Positions 7,128 through 64,000 of a DNA stretch of 64,000 nt are shown here, one piece after another; positions within the stretch are counted from its first letter, which is position 1, and each line of letters starts with the position of its first letter. The notes under the pieces were generated by a model, which had not been told where the DNA came from, searched no databases, and saw nothing but the letters and a program-made list of their open reading frames with translations. A program made the position numbers and the translations under genes. Source of the stretch: Takakia lepidozioides (taxonomy: Eukaryota > Plantae > Bryophyta); contig CM060733.1 of the NCBI GenBank assembly GCA_030704615.1, forward strand, positions 44,206,001 to 44,270,000. Direction: 5' to 3'.

Positions 7128-7139
7128 TGGTATCAGAGC
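7128..7139 (+). other. Primer-binding site (tRNA-iMet) of the Copia element
   Basis: TGGTATCAGAGC immediately after the LTR. Confidence 0.95.
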
Positions 7140-10679: not shown

Positions 10680-10699
10680 TTATCCCTCTCCCTCTCAAA

Positions 10700-20600: not shown

Positions 20601-21573
20601 TCCATGGTTTTGCCATATAGGCAATCTGCCGCTTCCAGACAGTAAAAATACTGGTGGTGCCCCCAGGGGGTCTTTGGCCCTGCCACTGGGTCACAGATCA
20701 TCTAGAGTTTCCTCCTACACACTTTGCATCGCTGAGGAGTTCAAAACTCCGCCGGGAAGCTCCTTCACCCGTCGTTTGCTCCGATGCAGCACTGGCTTTG
20801 TCGCGATATTTCATCGTTGTACAGATTGTTTCCTCCAATTGCCAAGACTCCTCGCCACGTGCTCCTACTGGACTTGAAAGGCAAGAGAATAGAGAGATGG
20901 CAATCCGGGACTGGAACAGTCGCCATGTATTGTTTCGAATAGGTGCGTGTTGTCGTTATTGGTACCGAATTGGCAGCCTAACTCGCTGTCGATGTAGCTT
21001 CCTACGGTCATTTTGACGCCAGAGCTCCTCCATGGTCGTCTCAGACATAATCTAAATTCGTACGTGCTTTACCAGCGATTCACAGATAACTCACAAACTG
21101 CCCTGCTTTGGCAGTACAATGCCTAAACTGTCTGCCTTAAGATCAAAAACGATTTGAAAAGAAATATGTACCAATATATGCATCTACATATATGACGACC
21201 AATGGGGAACACTCGCCCCGAGTGTAAAAGTACTCAGAATCTTTGGTTCCCACAATCCCCCTACTAGGGTATCACTGATATCCCTTGGAGTCAACGACTC
21301 TCTTAAGTGACATGAAAAAGCTGAAGAGTAATTTCCCTTCGGCTCTCCCTCTTCGGAGAAAGTTCAAGTCTTCCGGGAGAGTGGAGGGAAAAATAAAAAG
21401 AAAAAGCCAAAAAATACTTCAAAACCACCCGACTCACCCTCTTCGGAGAGAGTTGGAGTTCCCAGATAAAAAATACTTCAAAACCGCCATTCTCCCCCAC
21501 CGGACTGGGTTCGAAGCCCCTAGATGATGCAAGAGAGATATGCGCGGTGCAATTTGATAATCCTATTCTAACA
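17631..21573 (-). mobile_element. ~3.9-kb non-coding insertion with TG...CA ends (large LTR-like relic) interrupting Gypsy pol
   Basis: Begins TGACGAGCCC exactly where the RT peptide NAC is cut; ends ...TTCTAACA; no recognisable coding domain; no TSD found. Confidence 0.45.
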
Positions 21574-21596
21574 CAGCCTTGGAAGGACTTTGGTTC

Positions 21597-24318
21597 GCTG
21601 TCGTTGTGGTGTAGCTCCCGGAATTAGGGGAATAGGGTGCATGGCCACATAAGAGGGCACCCCTTTCAACTCGGTGTAGGACCACGAGAAGATGTCTCTA
21701 AATTCTTTGAACAAGGCCTGGTACTCTGCCGCCTGTTCTTCTATCAAATGGGATCCAACCTTCACCATCTTGGGTGATTTTCCTCCCACCGCCATATTGA
21801 CCAATTGCGTTGTTGGCTCGGCTGTGAAGGTTGATCCTGGTTCAAACCTTGATCCGTTTGACCCTTGTTGTAAATATGGAATGTAGGGGGCACTATGTTT
21901 CATCACATCTCTTTCTAGGTTGGCCTCCCTACAATTCTCATTTCAATGCTCTCGCCATTCTCCTCCTGAGGAATCTCTGGTTCTTGCAGACCAACCTGTT
22001 CGGCGGATATCGAGAAGAGCTCGGTTAGTGACTCGAACGCTGGAAGTGCCTCAGTTGATACCGAGTGTACCATCACCTCCTTGCCTTGGTTTTCTCCGAA
22101 CAACCAGGCGATGCAATCTGCATCAAACTCGCATTCATATAAACCCGGACCTAGGGACTTGACGGCGTCCTCTAGTCCTACCTTCCTTTGCTTAACCTCC
22201 CAGCGAGGCGCGGTGCTGGTTGCTAGTACTCGGTGGGCATGTGACGTTAGATGGATCTCTCTATCTGTCCACCAGTCCTCCTCACTCAAGTCCGCAGATT
22301 CCTCTTTAGAACCAATCATGTTGAGCTCATCCTCATCTGTTTCGTGGTGAGGTGCTCCCGAAAGAAAAGCGACTGTAGTCATGTAAGGTTTTATCCCATA
22401 AGTGATCGTACCTGCCCCCCAGTCCATTCGAGCTCGGGACTGGACCAACCATGGCCTCCCTAGTAGGAGTGCGTAGGAATACTCATCAATGGGGAAATCT
22501 ATGATTTGGAAGTCTACCGCGTACGTGTAGCCCCCGGTCTTTAGTCGAACATTCGCTAAGTGACCCACTGGTCTGATCTTCCGTTGGTCAGCCAGTCTGA
22601 TAGTTAATGGAGACTCCCCTATCATGTTCAATCCTAACTTTGACAAGGTGGAGAGTGGCATGATGTTGACAGAGCTCCCATCACCCGCTAAATAACGTCG
22701 TATCAGACGGTCTGCAATCTCCACTTTGATTTCTACTGGGCCCGGGTCGACATGGGCGTTAATGTGGTGGGTCTGAGCAAAAGTACCTACTCGCTTCCTC
22801 ACCAAGGATGCCTTGAGAGCATGTCGGATTGTTGGTGCCAGTGCTATGAGTTGGGCAAATGTAATGTTTGCCTGAATGTGGCGCAAATCTTCCAGTAGAT
22901 TATACGGCTCCAACTCATCCGCGCATAGTGGAGTGTGTTCTCCTTTTGGGAAGCTTTGCTGGTGCTACTGGTCGGTTGGCCGGACTCTTTGTTCTGGATG
23001 TCAAAAGGGGCTGAGAAATGGTTGGCCGACTGCCGGAGATTCGGTCTCTGCAAATGCTACCTCCTTCTCCTTGGGATGGGTATCCTCTCCTCCCTGAGTA
23101 CAGTTTCCGCCACCTTCCATGCGTCTGACTTCATGACTTTAAAGTTTAGATCTTCCTGTTCTGATGCTGATGTGGCTGACTCTGACGCCACATACCCAGG
23201 GCCTTTCCCTAGCGTATCTCGTTGCTGTCGGGTCATTACTGCATAGCTACCTTCCTCAGGGCTAGCCTGCGTAGTTTGAGTGGCGCCGAGCTCACTGAAA
23301 ATCCAATTGACTTGGTGCTGCGTCTCCTGTTGACGGGACGACTAACCGGGATGCATACTGGCTTGCTGCTGGGATGGCGTTGAAGTGGATGCTTGCTGCC
23401 CTCCCTGCACCCTTACATCCTGAGGGGGAGACCACGTATTAGAAGAACCCTGGGCTATCTGAGCCGCAAGATTTGAAATAGGCTGCTTGGGAATTTTGTC
23501 CCATAGCTGCATTGCCCCCATAATATGATGGGCCTGCCTGATCTGTTCTAGTCCGCTGCGCTATCTACGTTGGAGTAGCAAAATACATGCTATGTTGTTG
23601 TGGTAGAGGGTTGGGTGGTTCAGTGGTATACAAATCCGGGAAGGGTGCTCGCTGCCCTTCCAAATTCCTCTCTACTTGTTGAATGGTGGCCGGCGTAGGC
23701 TGGTCCACTTGTCTATGAGGACATTTGTCTAAGGGATGACCTCGCTGGCCACAGTGCAAACACACAATGTCACTCCAACAATTTTTAGTTGAGTGAATGG
23801 TTCTTCCGCACTTTTGACATCCTCTACGAGATTGATTGAATTGCCTTTTTGGTTTATCTTGATAAGTTGGGTTCCGGCTTACCTGCCTTTCCCGAACGGG
23901 ATAAGGATAGTGTTGAGACGCATGTCCCGAGTTGTTGCAATTGGAACACCATAACTTGGCCGGGTTGGGGCCGGACTCTCCCATTGGGGCCGCATCTCGG
24001 TACCCCACATAGCTGGTAACCTACTGACCGATTGAGCTCATGCGGTCGCCCATTGTTTCAATGGTCTTGATGAGAGAAGTGACTTGTGCCTCTAGATGGC
24101 CCACTCACGAATTGGATTGCCCGCTTGAATCTGCCTGTGAGTTGGTAGGAACAACATTCGCGTATTGCGGAACCGTTGGCGCTACTACGGGTGTCAGAGA
24201 CGCTGCTGGGGCGTAGGGTCTCACTCCTCCTACATAAGATGGCGTGTAATGCAGGGTGGGCTGGATTACCGCTAATGGTGTCGGCTCCTACGCGGGCTCG
24301 ATTGAAATGTACGATGGT
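21597..24318 (-). mobile_element. Ty3/Gypsy gag C-half (three CCHC knuckles), aspartic protease and RT N-terminus, degenerate
   Basis: CSNCNNSGH, CQKCGRTIHSTKNC, CLHCGQRGHPLDKC; protease region LAGDGSSVNIM...LLGRPWL; FKEFRDIFSWSY..LKG. Confidence 0.9.
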
Positions 24319-26840: not shown

Positions 26841-27034
26841 CAGTGTTTGGGACAATGCTGTAATTACCCAGCTTTGTCTTGGAAGCTTGCTCATTAGACC
26901 ATAAACGTTGCCTCAATACAACTCATGTATCAGTGAGCACCCAAATGGTTTGTAGCAAAGGCCTGCTAACAAGAGGATCAACACGAGTCAGCGCATCAAC
27001 ATTTGTATTTTCCTTGCCATTCTTGTATACTATA

Positions 27035-27262
27035 TGAAAACAATGGGTTGATCAACTAACTAGAACACCGGAGGTGTGAATACATATACAACGTTTGTCA
27101 CAGGGATAAGGAGAGCAGGACCACATGGGCCTTATCGCTAACTGTAATGAAGCTATAATTACTGATGCAAACGGTGGCCAACTACTATCTAGATTTAAGG
27201 AGCGGTGCATTAACAAAGGCCTGATCTAGCGGCATCACAACATGGGTGTGTTAATTCCAACA
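27035..27262 (-). repeat. Copia 3' LTR (inverted relative to the 5' LTR)
   Basis: Reverse complement of 6900-7127; PPT TGAGAGGAGG adjacent on the minus strand; TSD TATAG (27030-27034 rc) matches 6895-6899. Confidence 0.95.
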
Positions 27263-28232
27263 CCTCCTCTCACACCCATCCTCCTCTCAATACTGAACTA
27301 CTCTCTTGAGGTGCTCAGCCTGCTAAGAGAGACAACACCTAGCTTCTCTCTAAGTCCTTCAAATTTCACTCTCCCCAAAGGTTTAGTCAGGATATCTGCT
27401 ATTTGATCCCTGGTCGATACATGTGCAAGATCCACCATTCCTTGTTGTACTTGCTCTCGCACAAAATGATAGTGTACCTCGATGTGTTTTGTGCGTGCAT
27501 GAAGAATTGGATTCTTTGCAATTTTTATGCTACTCATATTATCACACCAGATTCGTATGGGTTCTTCTCCGAAGATACCTAACTCGTTGGATAGGTGCTG
27601 CAACCAAATTGATTCCTTAGTCCCTTCGGCTAGGGCTCGGTACTCGGCCTCTGTAGAGCTGAGAGCCACTGTGGGTTGACGTTTAGAGCACCACGTTACA
27701 AGACTACCTCCCAGTTGAAATACGTACCCCGTAGTGGATCTTCTATTTTCCTGGTCACCTGCCCAGTCCGTGTCGGTGAATCCTGTGATCTCGCTAGTTC
27801 CTTGTTTCTTGAAGAGAACCCCAAGTTCAATTGTCCCCTTCAAGTATCTGAAAATGTGCTTAACTGCTTCCATATGAGGTGCTTGCGGGTTATTCATGAA
27901 GCGGCTAACGACAACCACAAAGTATGAGATGTCAGGTCTCGTGTTGGTAAGATATATGAGCTTACCAACCATTTGCCGATATATGGTAGCATCTGCAAGC
28001 TCATCACCCATGTCAATGATAAGTTTTGTCCCTTCGAGCATTGGAGTCGGTTTTGAGTTGGAATCTGAAAGCCCAAATTGTTCAAGCATTTTGGTGATGT
28101 ACCCACGCTGTGTCATGAAGATGCCCTCCCTGAGATACAAAAATTATATTCTCAAGTAATGAGACATTTCCCCCAAGTTTGTCATCTCGAATCTCTGCTG
28201 TAATTGATCTTTGATCCACTCAATTTGAACAC
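27263..28232 (-). mobile_element. Copia 3' half (RT C-half and RNase H)
   Basis: FEMTNLG, YRQMVGKLIYLTNTRPDI, FTDTDWAGD..RRSTTGY, SSTEAEY, WCDNMSSI, RTKHIEVHYHFVRE, QIADILTKPL; continues the RT broken at 9731. Confidence 0.95.
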
Positions 28233-29199
28233 TGTTAGAGGGCTGTCTGGGACTTAGACACTTTTAGAGGTTCTGTGGGGTACCTTTAATTTTGCGCAGA
28301 CTTACGGATGGTAGACTTAGACCAACACAGGCCTTAGGGGTGGTAGACAGGTTTACACAGTCAGTCATAGCAATACACAGTTAGACACAATTTGCCACAG
28401 CTTGTCATAGTCTGACACAGCCTGACACGGCTTGTCACAGCCTTCCACGGCCTATCATAGTCTATCACAGCCCGACACAGCCCGACACAGCTTCACACAG
28501 CCAGTCACAGCTTGGCACAGTCATAGCTCGACACAACGGAACACAGTCCGTCACAGCATACCAAGGAACGGTTATTAGCGGCAGGGAACGACTGTGTGGG
28601 AACGACATTTGCAGTGGGAACGTGCATTCTGTCTGGATGACAGTTAGTTAGTTAGGCAGTTAGAACAGCTTGCAGGTAGATTAGGCAGAGTAGCAATATG
28701 GAGAGGACACTTCTCGGGGAGCACTTCTTGGTCATCACGAGAGGAGATCGGCGGAGAGCACGACTGGAGTAGGAAGGGAGAACATGGTGAAGGAGGAGAA
28801 ACGATCTGTTGATGCTGTTACATGCAAGCTGTAGAGATATACTGTAGGGTAGACTAGGGACACCATGGCTTCGGCCTGATACTTGATAGATCTTAATCTG
28901 ATACACATTCCATACTCACACTGTGTAGAGAGATCTGAGTGAAGCTGTGGAATGAATGGATGAGTGATTGGAACCTGGTAGTTTGCTGAAGCAATCTGAT
29001 GCTTGAATATAAACAATAAGGTAATTTGCTGCCATGAAGGCAAGAAGGAATACAAACAAGAATCACTCCCATGATACACTAGTTGTAGGTCACGACTGAT
29101 TGTTCTGAGCGGGCTGAGTGCTTGGAGATATCCAACTCTTCTATCTTGGAGTTCCCACCTCGGATAGCGAAGGGATGGGTGAGTAAAAGCCGCTCGACA
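28233..29199 (+). repeat. Gypsy-A 5' LTR (967 bp)
   Basis: TGTTAGAGGG...CCGCTCGACA; homologous to 9732-10679 rc. Confidence 0.95.
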
Positions 29200-29241: not shown

Positions 29242-30175
29242 ATGACAGGCATCTGGTGGGATCATGGTGGATGGAGAATTAAAGAATTTGATGTGAATCA
29301 AATTCCCTGTGGAACAGAAAGAAAGATTGTCCAAACAGTTCTTTCAGAGGTTATTGGAATTGCCAGACGGTTGCAAAGAAAACATTCTTAAGAGAGTGCA
29401 TGATGCAGATCTAGAGTGGGGTCTGGAGAAAGGAGTGATAAAGATTTATCAAGTGGCCTGTAGAGGGAGAGCAAGTTGGTTACCAACACTGGTTTATGTG
29501 ATAGCATTGCTATCCATCAAACGAGTGGAGTTTGAAGGCTGGGAGGAACGGAAAGTGAATGTTTACACTCATATGCATGAAGAACTGGTAATGGTAAAGA
29601 ATTGGATTCCTAAGGATATCCTGTGGATCAAACTTACACCAGGAACAGCTTTTCAGACGTGCTTGCCATATGGTTATATGGTAACGGAGACTTCTAGTAT
29701 AGCCAAGGGTGCATTGAAGCTTGAAGGAAATCCAGGCATATACGAGAGATACTACAGAAGGGAGTTTTGGTTACTGCCTCATTAAAGATATGAAAGACAT
29801 GGGACATGAGTGATGAAAGAGAAGCTAGACTCCACAGATATTCAGCGAAAAGAGAAAGTTATTTGAAAGCTAATTATCCATATCTTTGGGAGAGGGGAAT
29901 AGACATAGGGGAATCATCTGGACCTCTCACACCATTAAGATCAAAGAGTATATCACCCATACCGGAAGAACCAGAGTTGGATGCCCACTCATTCTTATTC
30001 TTTACAAGAAAGATTAAGGGATTTGGTACAGGAAGAAGATCAGCCACGAGGGGAGAGATCGGAGGTACATCCTTGGATTAAAGATTTGACAGAATTTTTT
30101 TTTATCAGAGTTGGCATGGAACACCAAAAGCAGGAACTCCAGTTTCTGAAGCAGAAGACAAAGAATGAGAGGAGG
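29242..30175 (+). mobile_element. Gypsy-A 5' internal coding region (ORF upstream of or N-terminal to gag), truncated
   Basis: ORFs 29122-29391, 29309-29785 and 29806-30081 directly after the PBS; no capsid motif recognised. Confidence 0.6.
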
Positions 30176-30179
30176 ATGA

Positions 30180-31130
30180 TAGAAGAAAACACTCTGGGGC
30201 TGGGCCTCCTTCCACATCTTTAGACTGGTCCCCTCGTCCTTATGTCGTTTGAAAGTCTCACATGTCAGCTTGTCCATGATGTTTCTAATGTCATGCTCAA
30301 GCACAACATCATCACGACACCACTTCTCTCCATTGACCTTGTTGTCAAATACCTGTTGTTCATGTTGGGCCATGATTTCAGCAGGCAACAACCCAGCACA
30401 TATGCTATCCGTTATCCACATCTTAACCTCTTCACTAAGGTGAGGTGCATGCGCAAAACGGGTGTTATTTGAAGTCGGGTCAATGTGGCCATGGCAGACC
30501 TTGTCACATCCATCAACATGGTTTTTGTTGTAGTATGTTATGACAGCAAGAGAAGGATCCAGGTAGCATCATCCAATCCTAAACTGACACAGGCAACCCC
30601 TCTTGATGGACTCTCCCTGAATGACTTTCTTCCGTCTCGGCCCTTTGTGGTTATTGTAAGAAGGCGATGAAGCATCCAACACACACCCTCTCTTGCCGTT
30701 CCTTCTCTTCAAAGAATGTTTATTGATAGGTATTACATTTGTGCGCTTGTCCTCAGGTCCATAAGAACAATGGAACCTGAACAATGATGAGAATTATGTC
30801 GGCGGAGTGGAATACTCGGAGCAAGAGAGCATAGCATTTTGACAAAATAGAAGAGCAAACAATGAAAACAAGCAGCATGCCATTACAAAGAACACATAGA
30901 GACCATCCAGAAACCACAAAGGTGAAGGCGGACTTTATCACAACAGAGCAATTATTGGCCCTTGGAGCTAAGAGCTCGCCCTCCTCATGCTTTCCCTTTT
31001 TAGGCACCATTCTGTTGAAGTGAGTGGGCGCCTCTGCCCTTTCTTCCTCCCCTCTCACAAAATCGTCGATCCTGCTCCAAGGAATGACCGCAACATCCGT
31101 ATACACGATGTCCACCTCCACTTGAAATAG
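30180..31130 (-). pseudogene. Mutator-like (MULE) transposase N-half, homologous to the AT4G13970/AT1G60560 SWIM family; one intron (30777-30933); truncated
   Basis: VAVIPWSRIDDFVRGE..PTHF, FHCSYGPED, KRGCLCQF, HVDGCDKVCHG, APHLSEE, RDDVV, VFFY; compare the Arabidopsis family as recalled (IPFARVDDFVRGE, WCSFGPDD, KRGCTCHF, HVDKKGLPCHG, APYISE, VFFY); in-frame TGA at ~30570. Confidence 0.8.
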
Positions 31131-31399
31131 TTGGAGTCTATATAAGCGACCTGTGGTTGAAGGAACCATCCTGGGGGATTTGCAACGTGCCATGCAGCTG
31201 TGATAGAAGGAATGACGTGCGCAACTCCGAAGATCCAATCATGATGCCCGGCAGCCTTGCAGGAACAGTACACATCCGCAGACCACACGCGTCCTGTAGA
31301 AACAGTACACAGCAGCAAACTACACGCGCAAAGAGGATCAAATCTCCGAGCAACCGGAAACCCTAAATTTCAATACATCCACTCCGTTCATCTCACAGA

Positions 31400-32960
31400 C
31401 CAAAATGGCAGGGGACGTGCATGGCCGTTGGATGGGAGGACGACATAGATGAACAGAATGATAGCCACGTGCAAACAGCCCTAACATTTGACACGTGGAA
31501 GGGGGATTGCTCCGGCGGGGGGCGGAAGGATGGGGGATCACTCCAGGTGGTGTGGGGGATCAACGGAGAGGGGACCGCCATGGGGGGGAACGATCACCTG
31601 TTCCGCCGTTGACGCGCGGGGGGTCAAGGGTGGGAAGACACGTGGCATGGCGGCGGCGGGGGATCAACCAGAGGCGGGGGGAGCGGTGGCTCGGGGGATC
31701 GGGTCTTGGATGGGATGAGGGGATCGACGGCCACGGAGACCGCCACGTGGTGGTAGAAGACGAGAGGGGGATCAATTGCCGGTTTGGACGGGGGATCAAC
31801 CGAGGCGGGGGGTCGCGGCCCGGGGGATCGCCACGTGGATGGGAGGACGGGATCGAATGTCGGGGGATCGCGAATGACTCAGTTTTGAGGTTGGATGGAT
31901 GCGCAAGGGATCCTCGGTTCAGGGGAGCACCACGTGGCGGCTGATGGCTGGAGGGGGATCAGTGACCGCATTGGACGGGGATCGAAACGGGGGGGGGGAG
32001 ACCGGCGATGGCCCGGGGATCACGCCTTCGATGGGATGAGGGGATCGACAGGGGGGAGCACCACGTGGCGGTGGGCGTGCCATGGGGCCTTCATCCGGCC
32101 TTCGTCCATCCACTGCGCGGGAGATGCGGGGGGATGAGGGGCAGATGACCCAGAACATCCATTGTTTTGAGGTTGGATGGATGAGCAGGGGATCGACGGT
32201 TCGGGGGAGCAGCACGTGGCGGGTGATTAGGGGTGGGGGATCACTGCAGGTCCGGAGTGGGGATCAAGCCAGGTCGGGGGATCGGCGGCGGGGGGAGCGC
32301 CACGTGCCGTCTGATGGGTGGAGGGGGATCAGTCACCGCATTGGACGGGGATCAACGAGGGGGGTGGGCGGGACGTGTCGGGGGATGGGCCGTGGATGGA
32401 AAGAGGGGATCGACGCGGGGGGAGCGGGAGGATGGCGGGGGGATGAGGGGTGGATGACACACAACATCCATGTTTGTGAGGTCGGATGGATGCGCAGGGG
32501 ATCGACGGTCCGGGGGATCCGCACGTGGCGGGCGATTAGGGTTGGGGGATCACTCCCGGTCCGGAAGGGGGATCAAGGCATGTCATGGGGAGTGGCGACG
32601 TCTTGGGGGAGTGCGCCGTGGATGGGAGGAGGGGATCGACGGCGGCGGGAGCGCCACGTGGCAATGGGCGCGTCATGGGCCTTCATCCGGCCGTCATCCA
32701 GAGGTTGGATGGATGGGGAGGGGATCGACGGTTCGGGGTAGCGCCACGTGGCTGGAGATGGGGATAGGAGATCACTCCGGCACTGGAAGGGGGATCAACC
32801 CAGTGAGGGGATCCACAGCGGGGGGCCGCCATGTGGCTGGAGATCGGCGGTGCTGTGGGGCGCCGCGCGGCCAGCGGTGGGGCGGGGGTCAGGGTCCCGG
32901 GCGGGCGGGAGCGGGGTAGGGGGGGTGCGGGGGGCGAGGGGCGGGCTGGGGCGGGCTCCC
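31400..32960 (-). repeat. GC-rich subterminal repeat arm and probable terminus of the MULE
   Basis: >25 GGGGATC motifs and 12 CACGTG; a duplicated module of ~300-380 bp; abrupt end at GGGCGGGCTCCC (32960). Confidence 0.7.
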
Positions 32961-33695: not shown

Positions 33696-40402
<6,707 letters not shown>

Positions 40403-42578: not shown

Positions 42579-45500
42579 TTACTTCAACTCTCCAAAGTCA
42601 ATGTCATCATCTGCAGGGAACAGCATAGAGCAACAGTTCAGTTGAATCTTTTCACTTCATGTGGACTAACCACATCCCATCTCAACTGCTGACACATGTG
42701 CAGCCACTCTCAGACAGTTTTGACCACTTCACACCAGGTGTTTCCTTTGTAAATCAAGGAAAAGAAGTGGCATGCTAATTAGGTGTTCTCGAATCGGACA
42801 TCTCAATTCATCTTACCTTGCTTGCAAACCTCTAAAAAAAGAGCATCCTGAAAGAGCTTCTCATGTAAGGTACAGACCCCTTCCATCTCAAATGCACCTT
42901 TCCAACGAGAACTAGTTCGTAGTGTGCAGATGAAAACTCAATGTGGTCAGTATTTACCAAGGACATCTTTATCAGGAGATCGTAGGAAAGTGTCGGGTGT
43001 CAAAAAAGGCGAGCCTGTATAACTTCCGAGAGGTCCCAAATCTACATCACCTGAACAAAGGGCTCAGTCCAAGACACAAGAGTGCGGGGAGGGCAGGGGT
43101 TAGGGATGGAGGGAAAGCAATAGTGAGAATGAAAGGAAGTAGACAACAAAATCCAAACCAGAACTGCATACAATGAAAGTAAGACCCACTTTCTTTTCTG
43201 TTCCATTTTCACTCGACCAAAACATTCCTGCCCACAAAACAAAATAACGCCGGGGTGGTTTACCTCCTCCATTTGTGAGCTCCGCCGTCAAATCAGAAAG
43301 ACTGAAATTGCGGGGCAATTGGCCAAGGGACTCGAGCGATTCTCTAGTACTGCTCGCATCTGCATCCGCTGATGTCATTGGAAGAGTGCCAATGCCATTT
43401 TGATTATTGGGATCAGAGGCTGCAAATGGGGTGTCAAGAGCTATGGACGTTGGTAGGCCCATCCCCATGCCTGACATGTCTGGTGGGCCCATGGTTCCAA
43501 AGGGAAAAGAACCTCCAGCCATTCCCCCTGGTGTCGACCCCATGGAACCCAATGAGAGGTCACTACTCCCAGACGAACCTGATGATGGTATCCCCAATGT
43601 CATGTCAACCATGCCACTGCATTTGGTCAAGGATACCCTGTCAGAATTCTGTGTTCTTACAAGGTAAGTTCCTTCTCACAACTTATGAATTTTAATTTCA
43701 AACAAGTGACCATACGACCATCTCAGATCCCTACACAATATCCTTTCACAGAGAGAGAGCTACATTTGTTGTCCCATGCACATATAGTCATCGAGTAATC
43801 CTGAACCCCACATATGCGCAGAAAAAATTCCAATAGGCAAGACACAGTCTCCAACATGAAGTCAACGCAATCAAAACAGACAGCCGCAAACCTGGCCCTC
43901 TAGGACAGATTATCCGCAAAGTTTCTTGACAAATACTGCTAAACTTGTCTGCAAAGTTACATGCAAAGAGATGCTTACTTCGTGCCATCATTGTCCTGAG
44001 AGTGATAGCTGTCTGGCATAGCAGGGGCCCCATTCATTAGCTGTGAGCTTGGGGCTGGCATGGACATTGACACCATGCGTGGATGACCTGGAGGTACACC
44101 CCCGCTTGGTGGCTGCATTGGGTACCCCATTGGAGTATGATGCACTGCAAGAGACATCAGAAAGCATCAGAAGCATTTCATGCAGGAGACAACGAGTAAA
44201 AAGAAGAGAAATGGTAAAAGGTTGAGGGTGTTACTGGGTGAGGGATGCAAGCCATTCTGCAAGGGGAGCGACGCCTTGGCAGGGAGCAAGCGCATCTTGT
44301 GCATAAGCTGTACCTGTTGCTCTAGCAGGTGATTGAACAGCACAATCTGCTTCTTGAGTTTGAGACGAGTGTAGTATGCCTTGAAAAATTCAGGGTTCTG
44401 TTCCTCCAGCTTCTGCCAAACTGCACATGTACAAGAAATATCCATACTGTACTCTGAAGATAATTGCAGCATCCTCCCTTACATATAAGAGTGTCAGCTT
44501 CCAAGAGATGGTCGAGTGGTTAAGGGGCACAAGGCCAGTTTGCAAGACCACACAGTATTTGCATGTCACCCATCATAGCCAACCCAGCTGTAAAAGGGGG
44601 TCACTTGGTCAACTGGTCAATGATCACATCCATATGCCCGAGGCAGTGTATAGCTCTCAATGGTACACACTGGCATGATTATTCATTATCAGGGGGGTCA
44701 TATCCATAGCAGCTATAGATCGTTTGGAGCTCCACCCCTCAGTTGGGTGAGAGCCTGCCATGATTACTTGTTAAATTCAGAGTTGTGATCAGAGACAGGT
44801 ATACACAGAGGCCTAATTTGGTCAGAAAATGTCATGTTTTGCCATGATTGGGCCAAAAAACAACAAAACATCTTGGGTAACTTGGGAAATTCCTCTGGCA
44901 CACCAACTTTGCCAAAGAGCTGATCTAAGGGCTAGCAATAACATCATACAGAAAGGTATGATTTTACCGATATACATCAATGATCTTGATAACAGCTTGC
45001 CTCCTTTCCAAACAAAGATTTGACATGAGGAGGAGAGAGTAAAGCTGGGGGTGTGGAGCATCACACTGCATTACCAGAGCATTTAAAAATAATACAATCA
45101 GATAATTTGTTTGGAAGCTGATAGAAGGAACAGCCGTATTACGTCAAGTTTGATTACCTTGCCAACACACAGTTACTGAGTGCCCCCTGCAATGAAATGA
45201 GTTTCAGCTGTAGAGTATCCAGGTTGCTCTCGAATTACTAAGATTTCTGTCCAAGTTTTTGTCAACGGCCACCCTCTCTCCTACAGAGACAGACACAAAC
45301 ACTCTCTCTCACAAGAAATAAAGCCGAGAACTTCGAGGACACTCTGTGAGGATGCAAGAGTTCCTGTACAAATAAAGGGGAACAGAAGAAAAAACCACCT
45401 TACCAAGGCTTGTGAAACCAGGCTCTATCTTGGCCTGGTACTGCAATGTAGTAATGACCTCGCTCTGGTTCATGTACAACTGAAGACATCGCTCTATCAG

Positions 45501-52847: not shown

Positions 52848-53576
52848 TCATATGCCAAGCGTGTCAACACCATTGCCACACACAAGACTGTTCATCACAC
52901 GTAAATTTACATGGTATCTTGCATTATAATTAAGGCTGCCATCAGACTTATAGTAAATAGCCAAGACTGTCCCTCCTGGCCAAAGGTATGTATATCCAGC
53001 TGAGGCGCACATGCTTATATAGGAGGTTGGGTAGCGCGTGAGCAGCATGAGCACAAGCGAATATTAAGGGTATTCCTTAGATGCCTTTCGAATATTCTCC
53101 AGCGAAACTAAAATTGAGAAACTAAAAACTTTGTGAAACTTTTTTTAACTGCTCACATAGGCCATCACAATCGGATACCTCAAAAAACCCCAAAAAAACA
53201 AAAATTGTGGTTTTCAATCCGGGTATTCAGTTTAAGCCCTAGAAAAGTTATTTTCGCACTGAGAAAATAAATCTAAAGGTACTCATATGCACCGTGCCTG
53301 TTAACATGTAATTCCTATAACCGCGGTTTGAAAACATTTAACCCTATGACCGCGGGTTGTGCTCACGTGAGCATGCTCACGCTGTGCTCACAAGATACCA
53401 ACCCCCCTTATACAGCCGCATCTATCCGGCACCAACTCCCCGTTGATGTTGCCTAAATAAGCATTGAGATTTATTTGCGTGTTCGTCGTGCACCCCTAAT
53501 TGTTCCAGCAGCAGGCACTAAGAACAGTCCCGACCAATTTTGGTCCCCAACAAGTTGCAAGAAAATTACCACAAAT
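52848..53576 (-). pseudogene. Cyanovirin-N homolog (CVNH) lectin exon, interrupted by a MITE and a TAG stop
   Basis: After removing 53023-53406 and one TSD copy: ICGNFLATCWGPKLVGTVLSACCWNN*GCTTNTQINLNAYLGNINGELVPDRCGYISMCASAGYTYLWPGGTVLAIYYKSDGSLNYNARYHVNLRVMNSLVC. Confidence 0.75.
53023..53406. mobile_element. Complete Mutator-like MITE with 9-bp TSD
   Basis: TSD CTTATATAG (53014-53022) / CTTATACAG (53407-53415); ends GAGGTTGGGTAG... / ...GATACCAACCCCC; GTGAGCATGCTCAC subterminal palindromes. Confidence 0.85.
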
Positions 53577-53775
53577 CTGTTTTGAACAGTCATGCCACAA
53601 CATACACACGCATCCATGAATTAATCATTTGTATCTTTGTCCGTTGGAACATGGAACAATAAATGCATTTGATACATGTCGAGAGCATAGTGTCATTCTC
53701 GCTTCATCCAAATCCACGAGCAGTTTACGGATGTGTGACTTTAACCTGAGACCTAGAGAACCGTAATATATATCG

Positions 53776-54097
53776 AGGTTGGGTAGTGTGTGAGCATGCT
53801 CACATGAGCACAAGCGAATATTAATGATATTCCCTAGATGCCTTTCAAATATTCTCCAGCGAAACTAAAATTGACAAACTAAAAGCTTTGCGAAACGTTT
53901 TTTAACTACTCACATAGGCCCTCACAGCATCACTTAAGAAACAAGTAACACCTATACACAATAAACATGTTACCCTATAGGCGTGGGGTTTCCTCATGTT
54001 ATGCAAACCGGATACCCCAGAAAATCCCAGAAAAACAAAAATCGTGGTTTTCAGTCCGGGTATCGGCAGTTTAAGCCTTATTTTCGCATTGAGAAAA
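53776..54097 (+). mobile_element. Third, truncated copy of the Mutator-like MITE
   Basis: Homologous to 5888-6249. Confidence 0.85.
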
Positions 54098-54098
54098 T

Positions 54099-54334: not shown

Positions 54335-54627
54335 CCGCAGTCGTTCATACGACTGTAGTCATATGAACTACTATATAAATAGTCGTCTGTATGACTACAT
54401 GGCTCCGGAATAGGCGGAAGGCTGGTCAACGGCAATCGACCAGATTCAGCTCACCATTCATAGTCATTTCCATGACTATAGTATACATGGATGAGGTTAC
54501 ATAGTCATGATGAGTACTTGGGATTTTGTAATTTGGTGTGTATAATACAATTAAAACCATGGTCAAAGTTATGAAAACCATGACTACCACGGTTTGGCAG
54601 TTATAACTACCGCGATCTGTTGTAGTG
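54335..54627 (-). mobile_element. CACTA element terminus that truncates the methyltransferase
   Basis: Minus strand begins CACTACAACAGATC at 54627; TAGTC/GACTA subterminal repeats. Confidence 0.75.
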
Positions 54628-55440
54628 GATCCTGGGAACCTGAGCAGTGTAGGTAGTGCTGCTTGTGGTCGACCCACCTTGTTGACCACTACCAAAGGCG
54701 AACGGTCATCGTGTCTCACACGCTGAGACTGCTTCCTTGTGTCCAAAATGTTATCCACTGTGAGGTGTGCTGGCCGCTGCACCCCATCAAATGCACGCTT
54801 AAGCAGTGCGGGTGGCATCAAGTTAGTCCACCATAACCGTGGACGATGAGCCCGTGACCCCACTGCAGCTGCATCCAGCAACACTGCTGACCCAAGCCAC
54901 GACTGGACTTGATGCACACTGGCTATCACTATGGTCCGAGAATTGCCCATCAGTGACACATTCTCCAAGATGTATGTTGGAGATACAGCTTGATGAAGCT
55001 GTAAGTGGCGCAAAACCCGCATCATCTCCCAAAACAGACCCGACCTCGAATCTCGCAATCCATTGCCATGCCCGGCTGATGAATACCCTTGGCAGGGCCA
55101 ACCTGCCACTACCAAATCAATGGAGCCAACCCCCTCCAAATCCTGCGCCCCCAGCAACGAAATGTCTCCTAGCAAGGCCTGCTGTTATCCACGAACTGCA
55201 GACACCGGCAACAACTTAGGGTACTGCTGCACCAACTGAGCAACATGGCATAGGGAGATGCGTCGTGCAGTCTCATCCCTCTCCACATACAGGTAACGCC
55301 GTACCCGTAGACCTGCCTGTAGAACAGCAGCCAATCCGGTGCTGATCCCGCCAAACAAGTCCAGAAGGCAAATGTCTTCATCCGGACACTGCCACATGAT
55401 CGGTGTGGTATCCAATGGTGACAACTGAGGTGGACCTGGT
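54628..55440 (-). pseudogene. Retrotransposon-borne C5 cytosine DNA methyltransferase domain (DNMT3-like motif order), truncated
   Basis: Motif I LDLFGGI, II YVERD, III GDI, IV DLVVAGWPCQG, RSGLFWE, VI YILENV, VIII AHRPRLWWTN; one TAA at 55185-55187; motifs IX and X lost; no introns. Confidence 0.9.
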
Positions 55441-56850
55441 CTGCTCTAGCTGCTGAAGCCGGTTGGCCATGCCTTGGTCATCACCTTGACCTCCGCGTCC
55501 TTGGCCATGTTGAGCTTGCCCTTGGCCTACACCTCGTGCCTGACCACCTCGTCCTCTCTGGGCTGCTCCACCTCGCCCCCGGCCACCATTGTTCCCTTGG
55601 AACTGGCCTGGGCGCAACTCAGGATGCAAACCATAGCACTGGGCCTCACCATGCCCGTACTTGCCACAATGCCCACACTGCAACTGTGCAGGCTGTGCTG
55701 GTGTCAAACCATTGCCTCCATCTGGGCAATCCTTCTTGACATGGGGTCCTCCACATGTCTAGCACACCACATCCACCCATTGTTGGCTTACAAATGAAGG
55801 GAGAGACCCCTGCATCTGAGGTCCTCATTGTTCTTCCTTGGGCTTCACCTGAGCCCCCTTATTGCCTTGAGTACATTGAGGTAGTGGCTGGCTAGGAGTA
55901 CCACTACCCCGTGGTGCTTCCTTAGCAAATCCCACCATGACCACTCGTTCCTCCACCATGTTGAGCTCTATCCGCTCTGCCAGCAAAAACACATTTGCTA
56001 AGGTGGGTTGGGCCGCTTATAGGAGAGTTGCATCCCGCACCCTTCTCCTCAGCTCCTTGTCCAATATCCCGTACCAGAACTGGACTACCTGAGCCTCCGT
56101 AACCCCTTGGGTTACATTTATCAAGCGCTTCATGCGAGTGAAAGCCCCTCTCAAGCTCTTAGTAGGCTTCATCTGGAACTCTTGCAAGCTCCTCAACTTC
56201 TCTGTCCTCACCCCTTGGTAGTTCCTTCTCAACTCTTCGAAGAACTCCACAACGGGGTTGAAGGCAGACACCGCCACTGGTGCTGGTGCAGCAGTAGCTT
56301 GGGTGGACGACGTAGCCTCTGTACCACTAGTCCCACTATTGCCGGTGCAGCTGCTGCCCTTGTGCCTCTAGTGATGGAGACATAGTCGGGTGACTAGTAC
56401 ATCCTCCACTCCTCGATCTCAACATCGTGCCCCCGCCTAAACTCATGGTAATCATCCATGGGCGGCCCCTCAAGGTGCTAAAACAGCCCCTTCCATGCCA
56501 TGAAAGGCGTAAACAGTTGTGGATTGCGCATTTGCTGCAAGTCACACCAACTATCAAACTCTTGGATAAAATCATCCAGCTCAATGGTGCCGACCGCCCC
56601 AAAGTACCTTCGTGGCCCATTGGTGGCTCCATACATCTCCTCCATCGTGTCCCACAACAATGGCAAGGAAACAACTTGCACCGCCGGTGGGAGTCCTCCT
56701 GATTCACAATCCGAATCAGAACCTTCCGTAGAAGACACATGAAGTGAAAGTAGCCTAAACCGTACACCTCGTCTCGTATACCCGCTAGTATCGCTAGTGC
56801 TCGTACCAGCACTTTCCCCAGCAACTAGTGGCACCTCCGTGTTGACAAAC
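55441..56850 (-). mobile_element. Ty3/Gypsy-type gag with CCHC knuckle and RGG-rich tail, degenerate
   Basis: LDDFIQEFDSWCD, FFEELRRNYQG..ESL-like KSLRGAFTRMKRL..QFWYGILDKELRRRV, CGHCGKYGHGEAQC, GGRGRGG. Confidence 0.85.
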
Positions 56851-58556
56851 TGGCACTCAACCGGTCATGAACCTGTCTCTAACCCCCTTTCCACAAGGTA
56901 ACCGGGTAGAGAACCTGATGCGGCTTATGGTTTGGAATACTAGGTTCCTAACATAGCCTGCACCTGCACCTACATCCACCGCAGGTACTCCTATGGTTGG
57001 CTGGTCATCACCTCCAACCTCACCACAGGAGAAACAAAGATGGTCTAACTGGTCATCACCCCAGCCTCGCCATCGACAACATGCTCTAGGGTGGGATCGG
57101 CGATCAAGCCCGAGTCCACCACCTATAAAATCAAGCGCCCACACAAAACTAGCATGGCGCACAATCAAGCATGCAGGTGTAGAGGGGATCCAAACACAAG
57201 AATGAAAACAACAACTCCCCCACACCAAACAACAACTCCACAGTGTCGTTCCTGCAACCCAGCCCAAACCCGGACTGACTCTTGCCTCCACCTACAGAAA
57301 GGTATCGGCCTACAGAGAAGGTGAAAAACTACGAGGAAGAGAAGCTAAAGCAATGCCTATCCCAAGCACGCTCTCATCCCAACACCCTCTTTTTTTCCTC
57401 TCTTCTCTCACTTGCATGACCATGAGAGCATCCTATAGACACTCCTCAAACCGCCCTCCATGAGCTCATGAAACTCCAAGGCCTCCAAGGCCTCCAAGGC
57501 CCCATGCAAGCCTCCACAGGGTCCGCCAGTGCCTCCTTACATCCACCAGCCATTCCTCCGAATGGAACCACCTCAGGAAACCACACCGTTCACTGAAGGT
57601 TCAAAAATGGAGCAAATAGAGGTACATATAGGCCCCAACAACATTCTGTCCAAAGGAATTACCTGCAGGCTGGTCTTCCCTATAGTTAAGAATTGGGCTG
57701 AAAACCCGAAAAGATTACCTGCAGGGAAGTAATCCCCTTTGTTAAAACACAACAGGGAGGCAATTCTGACTTTTCTTCCGGATTAGATAGCTCAAAACCG
57801 TTGTTCTTCAGAGCCCAGCCTCCCCATCAAGGTCCCACGAAACGAGTGAATTTTTTATTTTTTTAATTTTATTTTTTTAATTTTTTTAATTTTTTACTCT
57901 AACTGTTCGCGGCCTTCCGTGGCTCCAACCGCCACGACTCCTCACGGCCCACCCTAGGCACTCGTTGGCCACGGGCTGCCCAGTGATACCCTGTGGTACC
58001 ACTCCCACGAGCCTTCACGGCCCGCCATCCCCACGATCTGGTCACCGTGCCCACCCATTGTATCCGCACCACGACTTCCAACGGTCACGGTCAACCATCA
58101 CGACCTGGGCTCGTGGTATCTCGTGATACCGCCCCAACGGCCCATCATGACCACTATTCCCTGCGATCCCTGGAACTCCCAACGAGTTCCCGAGGCGTTC
58201 CCACGCGTTCCCGAGCTGGGTTTGCTCTTGCACCTGCTGCCGACGAACTATGGCTTCTGCGGAGCCATCAACCCCGTCGCCCTGCACTCCTGAGCTCTCA
58301 CGGCCCACTAGAAGTGCCTCCAACTCAACAAGCAAGCTATATGCTGCCCAACAAGCTCCATTTTCTTCATGAAGCTCAATCTGAAAATACACACCTTTAC
58401 AAACTTGGTGCACCTGCACTTCTCATGCATCTCCCTTGGTTCTAGGGCGCCTTGTTGCTGCCCTTCCAGCCCCGCTCTTGCCACTCCAAGAGCCCTTACA
58501 CTGCCGAGTTTCAGATTGAAACTCCAACTCAGCACATGTTTCACAAGTGCACTGAT
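56851..58556 (-). mobile_element. Probable 5' leader of the gag-DNMT element, starting at a PBS-like remnant
   Basis: Non-coding region upstream of gag; minus strand starts AATCAGTGC (cf. TGGTATCAGAGC) at the junction with the inverted integrase. Confidence 0.45.
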
Positions 58557-59351
58557 TCTCGGGATCATCAAAGGCTGATGGCTTGGCAGAGAGAGTTGTT
58601 CAGACAGTCAAGAGAGATTTGCGCAAGTACGGTTTGCAGAAGGGACACCTAGGAGATTGGGACCTTCAGTTGCATTAACTAGCTATGGGCTATAGGTTTA
58701 GCAAGCAAGCTTCACTTGCCGCCTTCTCACCTTACTTTCTTCTCTTCGGCCGAGAGCCGGATTTACCTGCATCTATTCGCAGGGAGGCTGTAGTAGTTCT
58801 CAACCTTGATGATCCGGATGTGTGGCCACAAGCATGTGCTCAACGGGCAGAGTTGTTCAAGAGAGTCATGCCTATGGCTTTTGAGAACCTTGCTACTGCC
58901 CAACACCGAGACACATTGAGGTACGCCACTATACGTGGAGGGGGATATCGGCCAAGTGTTCGGCGTTTCCACCCTGGGGACTATGTGTATTTGCAGCAGA
59001 CAGTGCCGACGACCTTGGATGTCACAGCAGGACGTGTGATTCTAAGGGTCAGGGAGGTGTTGCCTTCAGGAGTATTGATTTTGGAGGGTCGAGATGGCAT
59101 GGTATGGAAGGACCGCGTGCGCAATTGTGCGCCATGTCACCTTTCCACATGTGGATGGGAGGATAGATCCCAACCTTGCAGTGGTACCTGCAGGTTTGCG
59201 TTGCATGCTATGTGGGCATGCTGGTGGCGCCGCAACCATGTTGGTGTGTGATAAATGCTCAAGGGGGTGACACACATGATGCTTAACACCGCCACTTGAG
59301 GAGGTTCATATCGGAGAATGGTTGTGTCCACGATGCCTTGGACAGAGGTAG
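58557..59351 (+). mobile_element. Gypsy integrase C-half plus PHD finger, degenerate
   Basis: ADGLAERVVQTVKR..RKY, DWDLQL, FSPYFLLFGRE, AQHRDTLRY, FHPGDYVYL; then CMLC..MLVCDKC..G*H..CLTPPL..GEWLCPRC (C4HC3). Confidence 0.9.
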
Positions 59352-59564
59352 CTAGTAGGGCTTCAATGCCATGGATACTAACTGAAGATCATGGATTGCA
59401 TGAAGGCGACTAACGATGGGGCTACGTTTGCACCCAGCCTCTTGATCTATCGACTTCAGGTGTTGGGACTTGTGCGATTGAAGATCAAGCGATGATCTTA
59501 TTGGGGTGGATACTTGCGAGCTATCCGGTGTTAGAGGAACCTAATCACCAGCTAGGGGGGCGAT

Positions 59565-59999
59565 TGTGGCGTGGCTTTCTAGGACTATATGTTAGGAAGT
59601 ATGGTTGGACAACGATGTATGTTGTGGTACGATGCTTAGGTGTACGACAGCTGTCATGGTTTTGTTTGTGATTAGTTAGAAATAGTTATTTCTAGCTAAT
59701 TAGGACATTATACATTTATATTTGTATTTTGTTGGCATTGGGACTTCATTTGGTTCCATATGCCAAGTGAGGTGGCGAACCTCACTTAGGACGTGGAGAG
59801 GTTATCTCCACGTGAAACGTAGGCAGGCTCGTCTTCTTCTAGTCGAGCCTCCCAAGGCCTTTCTCGCCGCCATAGCTCTAGTACTTGAGATGGAGAGTGG
59901 GCGAGGTCTGTATGGTGGAGTCCTTTAGCAAAGGTGCCATTGGCTTGACTTATATAACGTGATAGAGTGGTTTCTCCTCTTTTCACCATTTCCGTATCA
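59565..59999 (+). repeat. 3' LTR of the integrase-PHD element (435 bp, TG...CA), followed by a partial second copy at 60001-60086
   Basis: PPT AGGGGGG just upstream; TGTGGCGTGGCTTTCTAGGACTATATGTTAGG repeated at 60001. Confidence 0.8.
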
Positions 60000-60213
60000 T
60001 TGTGGCGTGGCTTTCTAGGACTATATGTTAGGAAGTGTGGTTGGACAGCGATGTATGTTGTGGCATGATGCTTAGGTGCACGACAGGGGTGGTGACTGGC
60101 TTGCGTAACCACGTTTTATTCTTATTACCATGTTGGACGGTAAGGTGTGCCGTTTACGAACTTACAATTGACTTTTATTGCGTGTGAAACACGTCATTTC
60201 CCTGCGTAAAGAC

Positions 60214-61390: not shown

Positions 61391-64000
61391 GACATTGCCC
61401 CACTTGGATACATAGGAAATTACACTTGGTCTTAGATTTCAATTCTTCACATATGGGCCAAACGGCATAGGCTCTGTGGAAAAAACATGCATTTGGACTT
61501 AGATGACATTGGACCCTTGGGCCAACGGCAGAGGCTACCCTAGAGGTTGCACTTGGGCCTCGACATAGGAGACGCACTTGCATACATACGAGATTGCACT
61601 TGGACTTAGATGACACTTGACACTTGGGCCAACAGCACAAGCGACCCTGGAGGTCATACTTGGGCCTAGACATAGGAGACGCACTTGAATGTATAGGAGA
61701 TTGCACTTGGGCATACACATGACCCTGGACACTTGGGCCAACGGCACAGGCTACCCTAGTCAATATCAATTTACATGAAGCGAGACGTTTGTTTTGTTTG
61801 TTTTGTTTTGTCACGTTGAGATGTCCCAAACCGCAAGGCCCCAGCCCTGGTGCTTGGTACCGTTGGAAAGCCCTCGACGAGGAGGGGTGCATGGGCTTGG
61901 TCTCGCGATTTTTGGACCTGCGGTGTGGGAGATGTCAAATTCCAAGTGCTTTTGGTCATTGGAAATTCACAAAAAATAGCAAAAATGGCAAAGTGGGCAT
62001 TCCTGGGACAATGGTTGGAGCCTCGATGGGAGAGATATAAAGGGAAAGGTCTCCGGTTCAAATCTGGTCATAGGCTTTGTGGAAAAATAATGATTAGACT
62101 TAGATGACATTGGACACTTGGGCCAACGGCAAAGGCTACCCTAGAGGTCGCATTTGGGCCTCGATATAGGAGACGCATTGGATACATAGGAAATTGCACT
62201 TTGTATTAGATTTTCAATTCTTCACACATGGGCCAAATGTACAGGCTATCCTAGAGGTCACACTTGGGCCTCGACATAGGAGACGCATTGGGATACACAT
62301 ATGATTTTACACTTGGATTTAGACTTGACACTTGGGCCCACGACACATGCTACCCTAGAGGTCACATTTGGGCCTCGACACTTGGATATAGAGAGGATTG
62401 CACTTGGACTTAGATGACATTGGACACTTGGGCCAACGACAAATGCTACCCTAAAGGTTGCATTTGGGCCTCAACATAGGAGACGCACTTTGATACATAG
62501 GGGATTGCACTTGGACTTAGATGACACTGGACACTTGGGCCAACGGCACATGCTACCCTAGTATAAATGAAGTCAGTTTGTTTGTTTGTTTGTTTTGTAG
62601 CGTTGAGATGTCCCAAACCGCGAGGCCCTGGCGAGGGTGCTTGGTCCTATTGGAAAGCCCTCGACGAGGAGGGTGTGCACGGGCTTGGTCTCACAATTTT
62701 TGGACTTGCGGTGCGGGGGATGTGGAATTTCAAGTACTTTGGGTTGCTGGAAATTCATGAAAAATTGCAAAGTGGGCATTCATGGGACAATGGTTGGAGC
62801 CTCGACAAGAGAGATATAAAGGGAAAGGTCTCCGGTTCAAGTCTGGTCGTAGGCAATGTGGAAAAAAAATGCATTTGGACGTAGATGACATTGGACACTT
62901 GGGCCAATGGCACACGCTACCCTAGAGACGGGAGATATATCAATAACGATATTCATGAAAAATAAAATAAAAATGGGGCCTTGACATTGGAGATGTACTT
63001 GGATACATAGGAGATTGCACATTGGGCTTAGATGGGCCTCGACATAGGAGACGCACATGGGAGACGCCCTTGGATACATAGGATATCGCACTTGGGCTTA
63101 GACGACAGTGGACACTTGGGCCTCTACATGAGATGCACTTGGATACATAGAAGATTGCACTTGGGCAAAGTGGGCTTTCCTAGAGCAACCATTGGCGCGT
63201 CACGTGGGAGATTTGGAATTTCAAGTCCTTTTGATCGCTGGAAAGTCGCAAAAAATAGCAAAGTGGATATATCAATATATGAAACCTCGACAGGGGAGAT
63301 TGCCAAAATATCAAAGTGGGCAATGACATAGATATTGTTGGAACAATGACGTGGAGATCTCCCAAACTGTAGGGTCTCTGGATGCATAGGGGATTACACT
63401 TGGACTTAGATGACATTAGACACTGGAGGTCGCACTTGGGCCTCTACATGTGAGACGCACTTGGATACATAGGAGATTTGCAATCAATATATGAAGGGAG
63501 ACGTTTGTTTTGTTTTGCTTTGTTTTGTAACGTCGTTGAGATCTCCCAAACCGCGGGCCCCAGCGCGGGTGCTTGTTGCCTTTGGAAAGCCCTCGATGAG
63601 GAGGGGTGCACCGGCTTGGTCTCATGATTTTTGGACCAGCGGTGAGGGAGATGTGGAATTCCAAGTACTTTTGGTCGCTGGAAATTCACAAAAAATAACA
63701 AAAATGGCAAAGTGGGCATTCCCGGGACAATGGTTGGAGCCCCGACGGGAGAGATATAAAGGGAAAGGTCTCCAGTTCAAATCTGGTCGTAGGCTCTGTG
63801 GAAAAAAAAACTTACTTAAATGACATTGGACACTTGGGCCAACGACAAAGGCTACCCTAGAGGTTGCATTTGGCACAAGCTACCCTAGAGGAGGAAATTC
63901 AGGAAAAATAGCAAAGTGGGCTTTCCTGGGGCAGTGATTGGCCCTTCATGTGGGAGATTTGGAATTTCAAGTGTTTTTGGTCACTGGAAATTCACGAGCA
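61390..64000 (+). repeat. Higher-order tandem array, probably non-autonomous Helitron-derived
   Basis: ~100-bp units ending GGGCCAACGGCACAGGCTACCCTAG, interleaved with a ~330-bp module (TGAAG..GTTTG..GGAAAGCCCTCGACGAGGAGGGGTGCA) at ~61760, ~62562 and ~63484. Confidence 0.75.

Follow-up and report, generated by a model that had tools for sequence, protein, structure and literature searches.

The window, a 64,000-nucleotide stretch of the genome of the moss Takakia lepidozioides, holds the remains of a retrotransposon with its own cytosine-5 DNA methyltransferase (DNMT), and we are highly confident that this copy is a decayed, internally deleted moss Ty3/Gypsy-type element of the KnitGypsy-Dnmt3 lineage. 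KnitGypsy-Dnmt3 itself is described in the text sections of PMC5890265 from the charophyte Klebsormidium nitens, as an intronless DNMT3 within Gypsy pol with DIRS-like repeats and a Ka/Ks under 0.2; its acquisition was placed in the K. nitens lineage, with modest copy number. Our observations extend retrotransposon-borne DNMT3 to mosses and liverworts and to high copy number, the kind of element itself being already published. Taking the reading as a whole, we consider it probable that this is an element of the KnitGypsy-Dnmt3 lineage whose DNMT likely methylates the cDNA that the element itself makes, either inside the particle or prior to integration. Such elements pose a puzzle recognized in 2018, namely what benefit a retrotransposon has from carrying the very enzyme by which it is usually silenced; dinoflagellates and Klebsormidium, the hosts known so far, are difficult experimental organisms.

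A methyltransferase domain in a broken element

The methyltransferase domain displays motifs I (LDLFGG), IV (GWPCQ), VI (ENV) and VIII (RPRLWW) in unpermuted order within a single intronless minus-strand frame (55400-54630), just as an earlier note on this DNA had described, and a Pfam scan that the same note had proposed placed the translation above the cut-off for PF00145 (E = 4.5e-14, 53.1 bits, cut-off 22). By sequence, the closest solved structures were DNMT3A (E = 8.8e-10) and DNMT3B, followed by weaker matches to M.HhaI (3e-5) and DRM2 (0.016). A predicted model of the DNMT domain of an intact relative, L001 (pLDDT 85.7), had DNMT3A as its top match in a fold search (E = 1.2e-19, TM 0.71); ESM Atlas matches to the DNMT consisted of generic C5-methylase clusters only. 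In this ranking, which is by similarity and not by tree, the window domain is nearer DNMT3 than DRM, DNMT1/CMT, DNMT2 or bacterial enzymes.

The frame is interrupted by an in-frame stop at 55187-55185, which is the TAA previously read at 55185, and its homology ends at 54628, with alignment showing that about 70 C-terminal residues bearing motifs IX-X, complete in relatives, are absent. A CACTACA motif starts at 54627 on the minus strand, exactly at the end of the DNMT homology, so the position of the truncation formerly ascribed to a CACTA element holds; the CACTA label itself stands on the terminal motif, no partner end being present in the window. Two shared repeat segments (53016-54098 and 5921-6249, 88-94%) probably belong to the internal part of the CACTA-like element by which the DNMT is truncated.

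On the same strand lies a decayed gag, matched by Marchantia proteins over 56645-55606 (tblastn), in which one zinc knuckle is canonical (CX2CX4HX4C) and the other damaged, the PF03732 match (E = 0.0015) remains under its cut-off, and five stops and one frameshift near 56360 have accumulated. The earlier note had the DNMT directly downstream of a CCHC gag; the common strand and the knuckle are there, and the direct contact is a deletion product, gag adjoining DNMT in the window through the loss of some 500 codons, the protease among them. Residues 354 to 864 of Marchantia protein P0005, which span the gag C-terminus, protease and linker, are unmatched in the window, gag and DNMT occupy separate frames with stops in between, and contigs of runs X1, X5 and X6 depart from the window at 55440, other copies continuing differently. 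Internal deletions likewise occur in relatives L007, L016, L017 and L027.

No protease, RT or RNase H (RH) is present in the window copy. The C-terminal part of an integrase (INT) and a PHD finger of the same family lie on the opposite strand, together with a B-A-B repeat end, and this piece and the gag-DNMT piece may represent one inverted element or two copies (Table 1). A match and stem search of the window found neither an A repeat nor a priming stem upstream of gag. Contigs of run X1 join the B2 terminus (60085) to the reversed 5′ non-coding region (57124) at depth 400, which suggests copies inserted into one another. As had been concluded before, the window copy is dead, and the damage (five gag stops, a frameshift and about 70 lost DNMT residues) goes beyond what was then claimed; no protein is possible from it.

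Table 1 Features of the element in the window and of the terminal repeats in the complete relative L020.
Feature	Position	Strand	Basis or context
CACTA-like terminus cutting off DNMT	54600..54627	-	CACTACA motif; no partner end in window
DNMT3-like C5 methyltransferase domain, motifs I-VIII	54628..55400	-	PF00145, DNMT3A match, motif alignment
Protease-DNMT linker end and deletion junction (~55440)	55401..55460	-	P0005 gap; contig divergence
Decayed gag, two zinc knuckles (~55770-55635), Gly/Arg-rich tail	55461..56645	-	Marchantia P0005 at 74% and 50% identity
Probable 5′ non-coding region of gag-DNMT piece	56646..58480	-	Repeated by contig depth; assigned from position
Integrase C-terminal part, same family, opposite strand to DNMT	58487..59143	+	79% Marchantia P0043, 51% Klebsormidium P0045
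PHD finger, pol end, two stops	59151..59345	+	PF00628, E 3.7e-11
Polypurine-tract-like run before B1 (putative primer)	59554..59563	+	Conserved in L020
Repeat B1 (TG...CA)	59565..59649	+	Window repeat search
Near-palindromic B|A junction CA-GC-TG (candidate integrase attachment site)	59643..59658	+	Same in L020, L005
Repeat A2 (TG...CA), 348 bp	59652..59999	+	Positional equal of L020 A
Repeat B2, element 3′ terminus	60001..60085	+	Against B1, 5 differences in 86 bases
L020 repeat A1	1679-2017		Complete relative; preceded by AAGG
L020 repeat B1	10239-10350		After purine run, then GC
L020 repeat A2, 339-bp A	10353-10691		Then AT
L020 repeat B2	10694-10805		Then AAGG

Relatives, domain order and abundance

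From 6,759 candidates, a protein search yielded 49 longer homologues, with Marchantia, Calypogeia, Sphagnum, Closterium and Klebsormidium as the named hosts; the window DNMT was 60-71% identical to the liverwort and moss homologues, and several of the longer homologues carried RT, RNase H and integrase in one chain. Haematococcus and Cymbomonas were added by a profile search, Scenedesmus and further Closterium by cluster look-ups of 20 proteins, and 508 clusters (50% identity) matched at E = 1e-30 or better. Vascular plants and hornworts were missing from the named hosts, an absence that carries little weight, since transposon proteins are frequently masked.

Relatives from Marchantia, Calypogeia, Sphagnum, Closterium and Klebsormidium share the domain order gag-PR-DNMT-RT-RH-INT-PHD (PR, protease). 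Among annotated metagenome loci (L001-L047 of 49, several of them near-duplicates), gag or pol domains stood beside the DNMT in 39 of 47, RT followed the DNMT in 21 of 47, and RT or RH preceded it in 9 of 47. Across 271 proteins, the DNMT came before RT in 14 and after RT or RH in 83, with PR-DNMT found in 36 and DNMT alone in 108. Two groups can be told apart: group A (PR-DNMT-RT), whose named members are streptophytes, and group B (RH-DNMT-INT), whose named members are the chlorophytes Scenedesmus and Haematococcus. The order RT-RH-DNMT-INT that the earlier note had expected did not hold for the moss family, whose relatives have PR-DNMT-RT; the other order occurs in the chlorophyte relatives. 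Group B (loci L028, L033, L034, L036-L039, L041 and L042; proteins P0256 and P0232) forms a large sister group, often with long open frames (1,100-3,300 codons), and our literature search found no paper on a DNMT between RNase H and integrase.

The RT of relatives was closest to Ty3 (E = 4.6e-82). Unrooted RT and DNMT trees, built by a quick method from 47-48 chosen rows, divided the same groups A and B (98 and 99 SH-aLRT) and both recovered the Klebsormidium and Closterium subgroups. The window DNMT fell with Klebsormidium, Closterium and bryophyte elements in group A, within a seven-row group with Marchantia (98). When the DNMT tree was widened and given 12 prokaryotic outgroups, with no host DNMT3, it yielded a single element clade (99) and did not hold Closterium and Klebsormidium with the bryophytes. 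Viral contigs, comprising 17 loci with weak phage methyltransferase matches (28-42% identity), were used as outgroup only.

The family is very highly repeated in the moss genome. Run X1, which possibly derives from the source sample, contained 36,913 contigs on a 9-kb stretch, and summed contig depth reached 6-10 × 10^5 for the DNMT and 4-10 × 10^5 for gag plus DNMT, sums that are not copy numbers, while the flank comparison gave single contigs at depth ~60-70. Run X8 (putative RNA) contributed 66 contigs, none at 99% identity or above, which speaks neither for nor against expression. Repetition, pol context and trees together bear out the earlier proposal of a multi-copy, Klebsormidium-related Ty3/Gypsy-type family with a DNMT3-like domain in a land plant: the DNMT is not single-copy, as the high contig depth attests, and elsewhere it lies inside pol.

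This copy is intronless, broken and out of frame with gag, as would also be the case for a processed fragment of a host DNMT3 that had landed by chance beside a gag fragment. The pol context found in genomes independent of this one (39 of 47 loci) refutes such an origin, and against it stand also the 60-71% identity shared with polyproteins from retroelements in other bryophytes, the high repetition of the family and the congruence of DNMT and RT trees; we regard it as extremely improbable. The moss family and KnitGypsy-Dnmt3 both have an intronless, unpermuted DNMT3-like domain in Gypsy pol and belong to one lineage, and the K. nitens polyprotein KFL_009030040 (P0045) has the order PR-DNMT-RT-RH-INT and falls in group A in both trees. 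Unlike KnitGypsy-Dnmt3, the moss and liverwort family is highly repeated, and the DNMTs are ~42% identical.

No land-plant report of Gypsy-DNMT3 elements was found in the open literature. The words ‘Marchantia’ and ‘Sphagnum’ are absent from the text of three supplementary files of the 2018 paper (PMC5890265), and the available text of a 2025 paper and a 2026 preprint ascribes these elements to ‘streptophytes’ only. The spread over chlorophytes, charophytes and bryophytes points to a capture far older than a Klebsormidium-specific one.

The window also contains an MCM3 gene (33696-40399, plus strand, 13 exon matches), the protein of which is 84% identical to that of Sphagnum and which, in a tree of 21 rows, groups with Sphagnum and Ceratodon (100/100), with the liverwort, lycophytes, ferns and seed plants apart, a position that marks the host as a moss.

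Split terminal repeats and a candidate replication route

In place of the paired LTRs that had been anticipated, the ends of the family are split repeats, A...B-A-B. The complete relative L020 is laid out as TSD-A-coding-PPT-B-GC-A-B-TSD (TSD, target-site duplication; PPT, polypurine tract), with gag-PR-DNMT-RT-RH-INT-PHD as its coding part, and both its A and B repeats have the form TG...CA. Four-base-pair TSDs were present in both relatives for which the two ends were available (AAGG in L020, CACA in L014) and follow B2, not A2, the element ends being A and B-A-B; the window shows the 3′ end only, a B-GC-A-B arrangement spanning 59565-60085.

The two kinds of internal junction behave differently. 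At the B|A junction, a 16-bp near-palindrome, the spacer is GC in all three cases (L020, L005 and the window), whereas the A|B spacer varies in all three: AT, T, and, in the rearranged L014/L015, 17 bases that start like the sequence following A1. Where B follows a purine run (five loci), it leads on to A in two and directly to the flank in two, and one locus ends there. In L020, positions 159-180 of A pair with the sequence that directly follows A1 (22 nt, 95%); across seven loci, such a priming stem started at the A end with 10-17 exact nt in five, had 11 nt further along in one, and 8 nt in one. The fold z-score of the stem region (-4.4) is inflated because the ends were chosen around the stem. 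No tRNA-type TGG primer site was seen after A in the loci scanned, and no terminal repeats were found in nine scanned chlorophyte-type loci, which may be incomplete or collapsed.

We propose a cycle in which the RNA would start inside A and prime its own reverse transcription, as in Tf1, and the plus strand would begin at the purine run before B, making B-GC-A the working LTR. Normal reverse transcription would yield a linear cDNA with B-GC-A at each end, which could be closed into a two-LTR circle. The DDE integrase would then cut the palindrome CA-GC-TG inside one LTR, rather than the LTR ends, and the cut circle would give A-coding-B-A-B with a TSD, in which the A|B joint would be imprecise and the B|A joint constant, as is observed. 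The form A-coding-B may come from circles with a single LTR or from B1 recombining with B2. The model draws on three A|B junctions, one of them from the rearranged copy L014. It also allows the mirror product A-B-A-coding-B, seen at none of nine 5′ ends, and that lack is left unexplained by it. On balance, we lean slightly towards integration through such a circle as the origin of the split ends.

Split direct repeats in the layout A-coding-B-A-B also characterize the tyrosine recombinase elements PAT, Ngaro and TOC1, and a route like that of DIRS/Ngaro elements merits comparison. Here the RNA would run into B2, the internal B-A junction would serve as the template from which the two ends are rebuilt, and the integrating molecule, circular or linear, would have A...B ends and arise without a normal two-LTR cDNA. 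That A-coding-B-A-B is the sole form seen, and its mirror never, would fit such a route, as would the description of KnitGypsy repeats as DIRS-type (PMC5890265, Fig. 4 legend). The purine run before B and the stem after A, however, occupy the places expected for a normal B+A LTR, the A|B spacer varies between copies with B|A constant, and the 4-bp TSDs point to a DDE integrase; in keeping with this, the Pfam matches of the scanned polyproteins include an rve integrase and no tyrosine recombinase. The rve DDE integrase and TSDs likewise set the moss family apart from PAT, Ngaro and TOC1, which integrate by tyrosine recombinase. We consider a DIRS/Ngaro-like route unlikely, if still a serious competitor of the two-LTR circle.

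Retroviruses offer a partial parallel to the two-LTR circle, since their integrase can cut the palindromic junction of such a circle and integrate it (PMC4372172; PMC1905944, PMC1180852), but in that case it is the junction between the LTRs that forms the palindrome, and a normal provirus results, whereas here the palindrome would lie inside the LTR and the product would be permuted. Tf1/Sushi elements and the plant Tcn1 chromoviruses share with the moss family the Ty3/Gypsy order, the lack of a tRNA primer site and predicted self-priming, and differ in having a chromodomain instead of the PHD finger and DNMT of the moss family, and ordinary paired LTRs instead of its split ends (PMC6317226, in the text available). 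DIRS-like repeats have been reported for KnitGypsy-Dnmt3 and may correspond to the split repeats here; TSDs, self-priming and a palindromic junction are absent from the text sections of PMC5890265. Troyka was considered as a split-repeat Gypsy and rejected, the text of PMC12440569 giving it ordinary LTRs, CG ends and 3-bp TSDs. If true, circle integration with the cut inside the LTR would be a route undescribed for LTR elements, although jointly with the whole lineage reading set out below we think it improbable. Split ends with TSDs, which suggest this route, would make LTR-finding programs miss the elements.

Conservation, candidate functions and other window features

GWPCQ, ENV and RxRxW were unchanged in 12 of 12 aligned DNMT domains, and comparison of the window DNMT with L001, L005 and L024 gave pN of 0.23-0.39, with synonymous sites saturated. 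For dN/dS we used 22 of loci L001-L035, having dropped 7 near-duplicates or self-matches and 7 distant loci and re-added L005 as reference. Among 20 close copies, which are mostly broken relatives, dN/dS was 0.54 for DNMT, 0.39 for RT, 0.40 for RH, 0.60 for protease and 0.71 for the integrase C-terminus. The DNMT value, showing weaker constraint than RT and about that of protease, is as expected of mostly dead copies and is no proof of recent selection; the strong purifying selection between families, taken with the dN/dS within the family, therefore indicates a DNMT long conserved like the rest of pol.

We looked for a methylation footprint in the element itself. CG observed/expected was 0.49 for the element, 0.52 for the window and 0.46 for a host exon, and CG/CHG depletion in the element was no different from this background, so the element bears no special footprint. 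Most differences between the window copy and other copies in run X1 run from A/T in the window to G/C elsewhere (200 vs 96 places), an excess that would be expected if methylated cytosines had been lost here.

As to function, the DNMT, sited between protease and RT, could be freed from pol, packaged with the cDNA and mark it at CG, a role for cDNA methylation that was proposed in 2018 for DIRS elements (PMC5890265). We put methylation of cDNA as the selected function at somewhat short of an even chance. A relative with demonstrated activity is SymbioDIRS-Dnmt3 of Symbiodinium, a retrotransposon-borne DNMT3 for which CG de novo methylation was shown in yeast, unlike the moss family in being a tyrosine-recombinase (DIRS) element and an independent capture (PMC5890265). 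In yeast, the DNMT of KnitGypsy left the DNA unmethylated, an outcome that its authors regard as inconclusive; human DNMT3B likewise failed in yeast (PMC5890265).

The DNMT might instead be kept for a role other than marking its own cDNA, such as DNA or chromatin binding that, with the PHD finger, aids targeting or protection of the integration complex, or methylation of RNA-DNA intermediates, or of flanking or host DNA in trans. The inactivity of the Klebsormidium relative in yeast would agree with such a role, chromatin reading is suggested by the PHD finger that ends pol, and the DNMT occurs at two different pol positions in groups A and B, so that a place beside RT is not essential. Yet the motifs with the catalytic Cys, Glu and Arg do not vary across elements whose synonymous sites are saturated, which argues for catalysis, and SymbioDIRS-Dnmt3 does methylate CG de novo. 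Another role appears less likely to us than marking of the element’s own cDNA, and we hold it as a minority view.

EpiLTR/DAM-LTR elements are also LTR elements with their own DNA methyltransferase, and differ in carrying an adenine methyltransferase, a DNMT4-related enzyme and a chromodomain; in the available text of the preprint, their authors set them apart from streptophyte Gypsy-DNMT3 (bioRxiv 10.64898/2026.05.21.726589).

Relatives 61-66% identical occur in Marchantia polymorpha as unnamed gene models (e.g. Mp_4g09160, Mp_8g17980), and since Marchantia has both methylation mutants and these relatives, the question of what the enzyme does becomes testable there. Annotations of bryophyte genomes can also list too many DNMT3 genes on account of such elements. 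At its broadest, the lineage reading would have Gypsy elements, from chlorophytes to mosses and liverworts, keep a DNMT3 active over hundreds of millions of years, self-priming, integrating as circles and pre-methylating new copies, with an enzyme that, given the copy numbers in this moss, could add to host de novo methylation; this combination we consider doubtful.

Several unrelated features share the window. A second decayed Gypsy element on the minus strand (15478-24020) has rve and H2C2 integrase domains, RT and knuckles, with no DNMT match. Two Copia-like copies, labeled by eye, lie in opposite orientation at 6899-10679 and 27034-29199, with parts 97% alike (inverted repeats I1-I7). An exon of a plant A_thal_3526 (PF09713) gene occupies 44170-44478 on the minus strand (E = 1e-10), and a minus-strand frame at 6547-6948, with no Pfam match, is one that we take to resemble a DNA-PKcs exon. 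GC-rich repeats spaced ~280-310 bp apart (31500-32900) adjoin open reading frames at 29297-31238 that have no Pfam match, and the end of the window (61400-64000) is an array in which a longer unit is interspersed among ~107-bp repeats, sequence that recurs in the genome.
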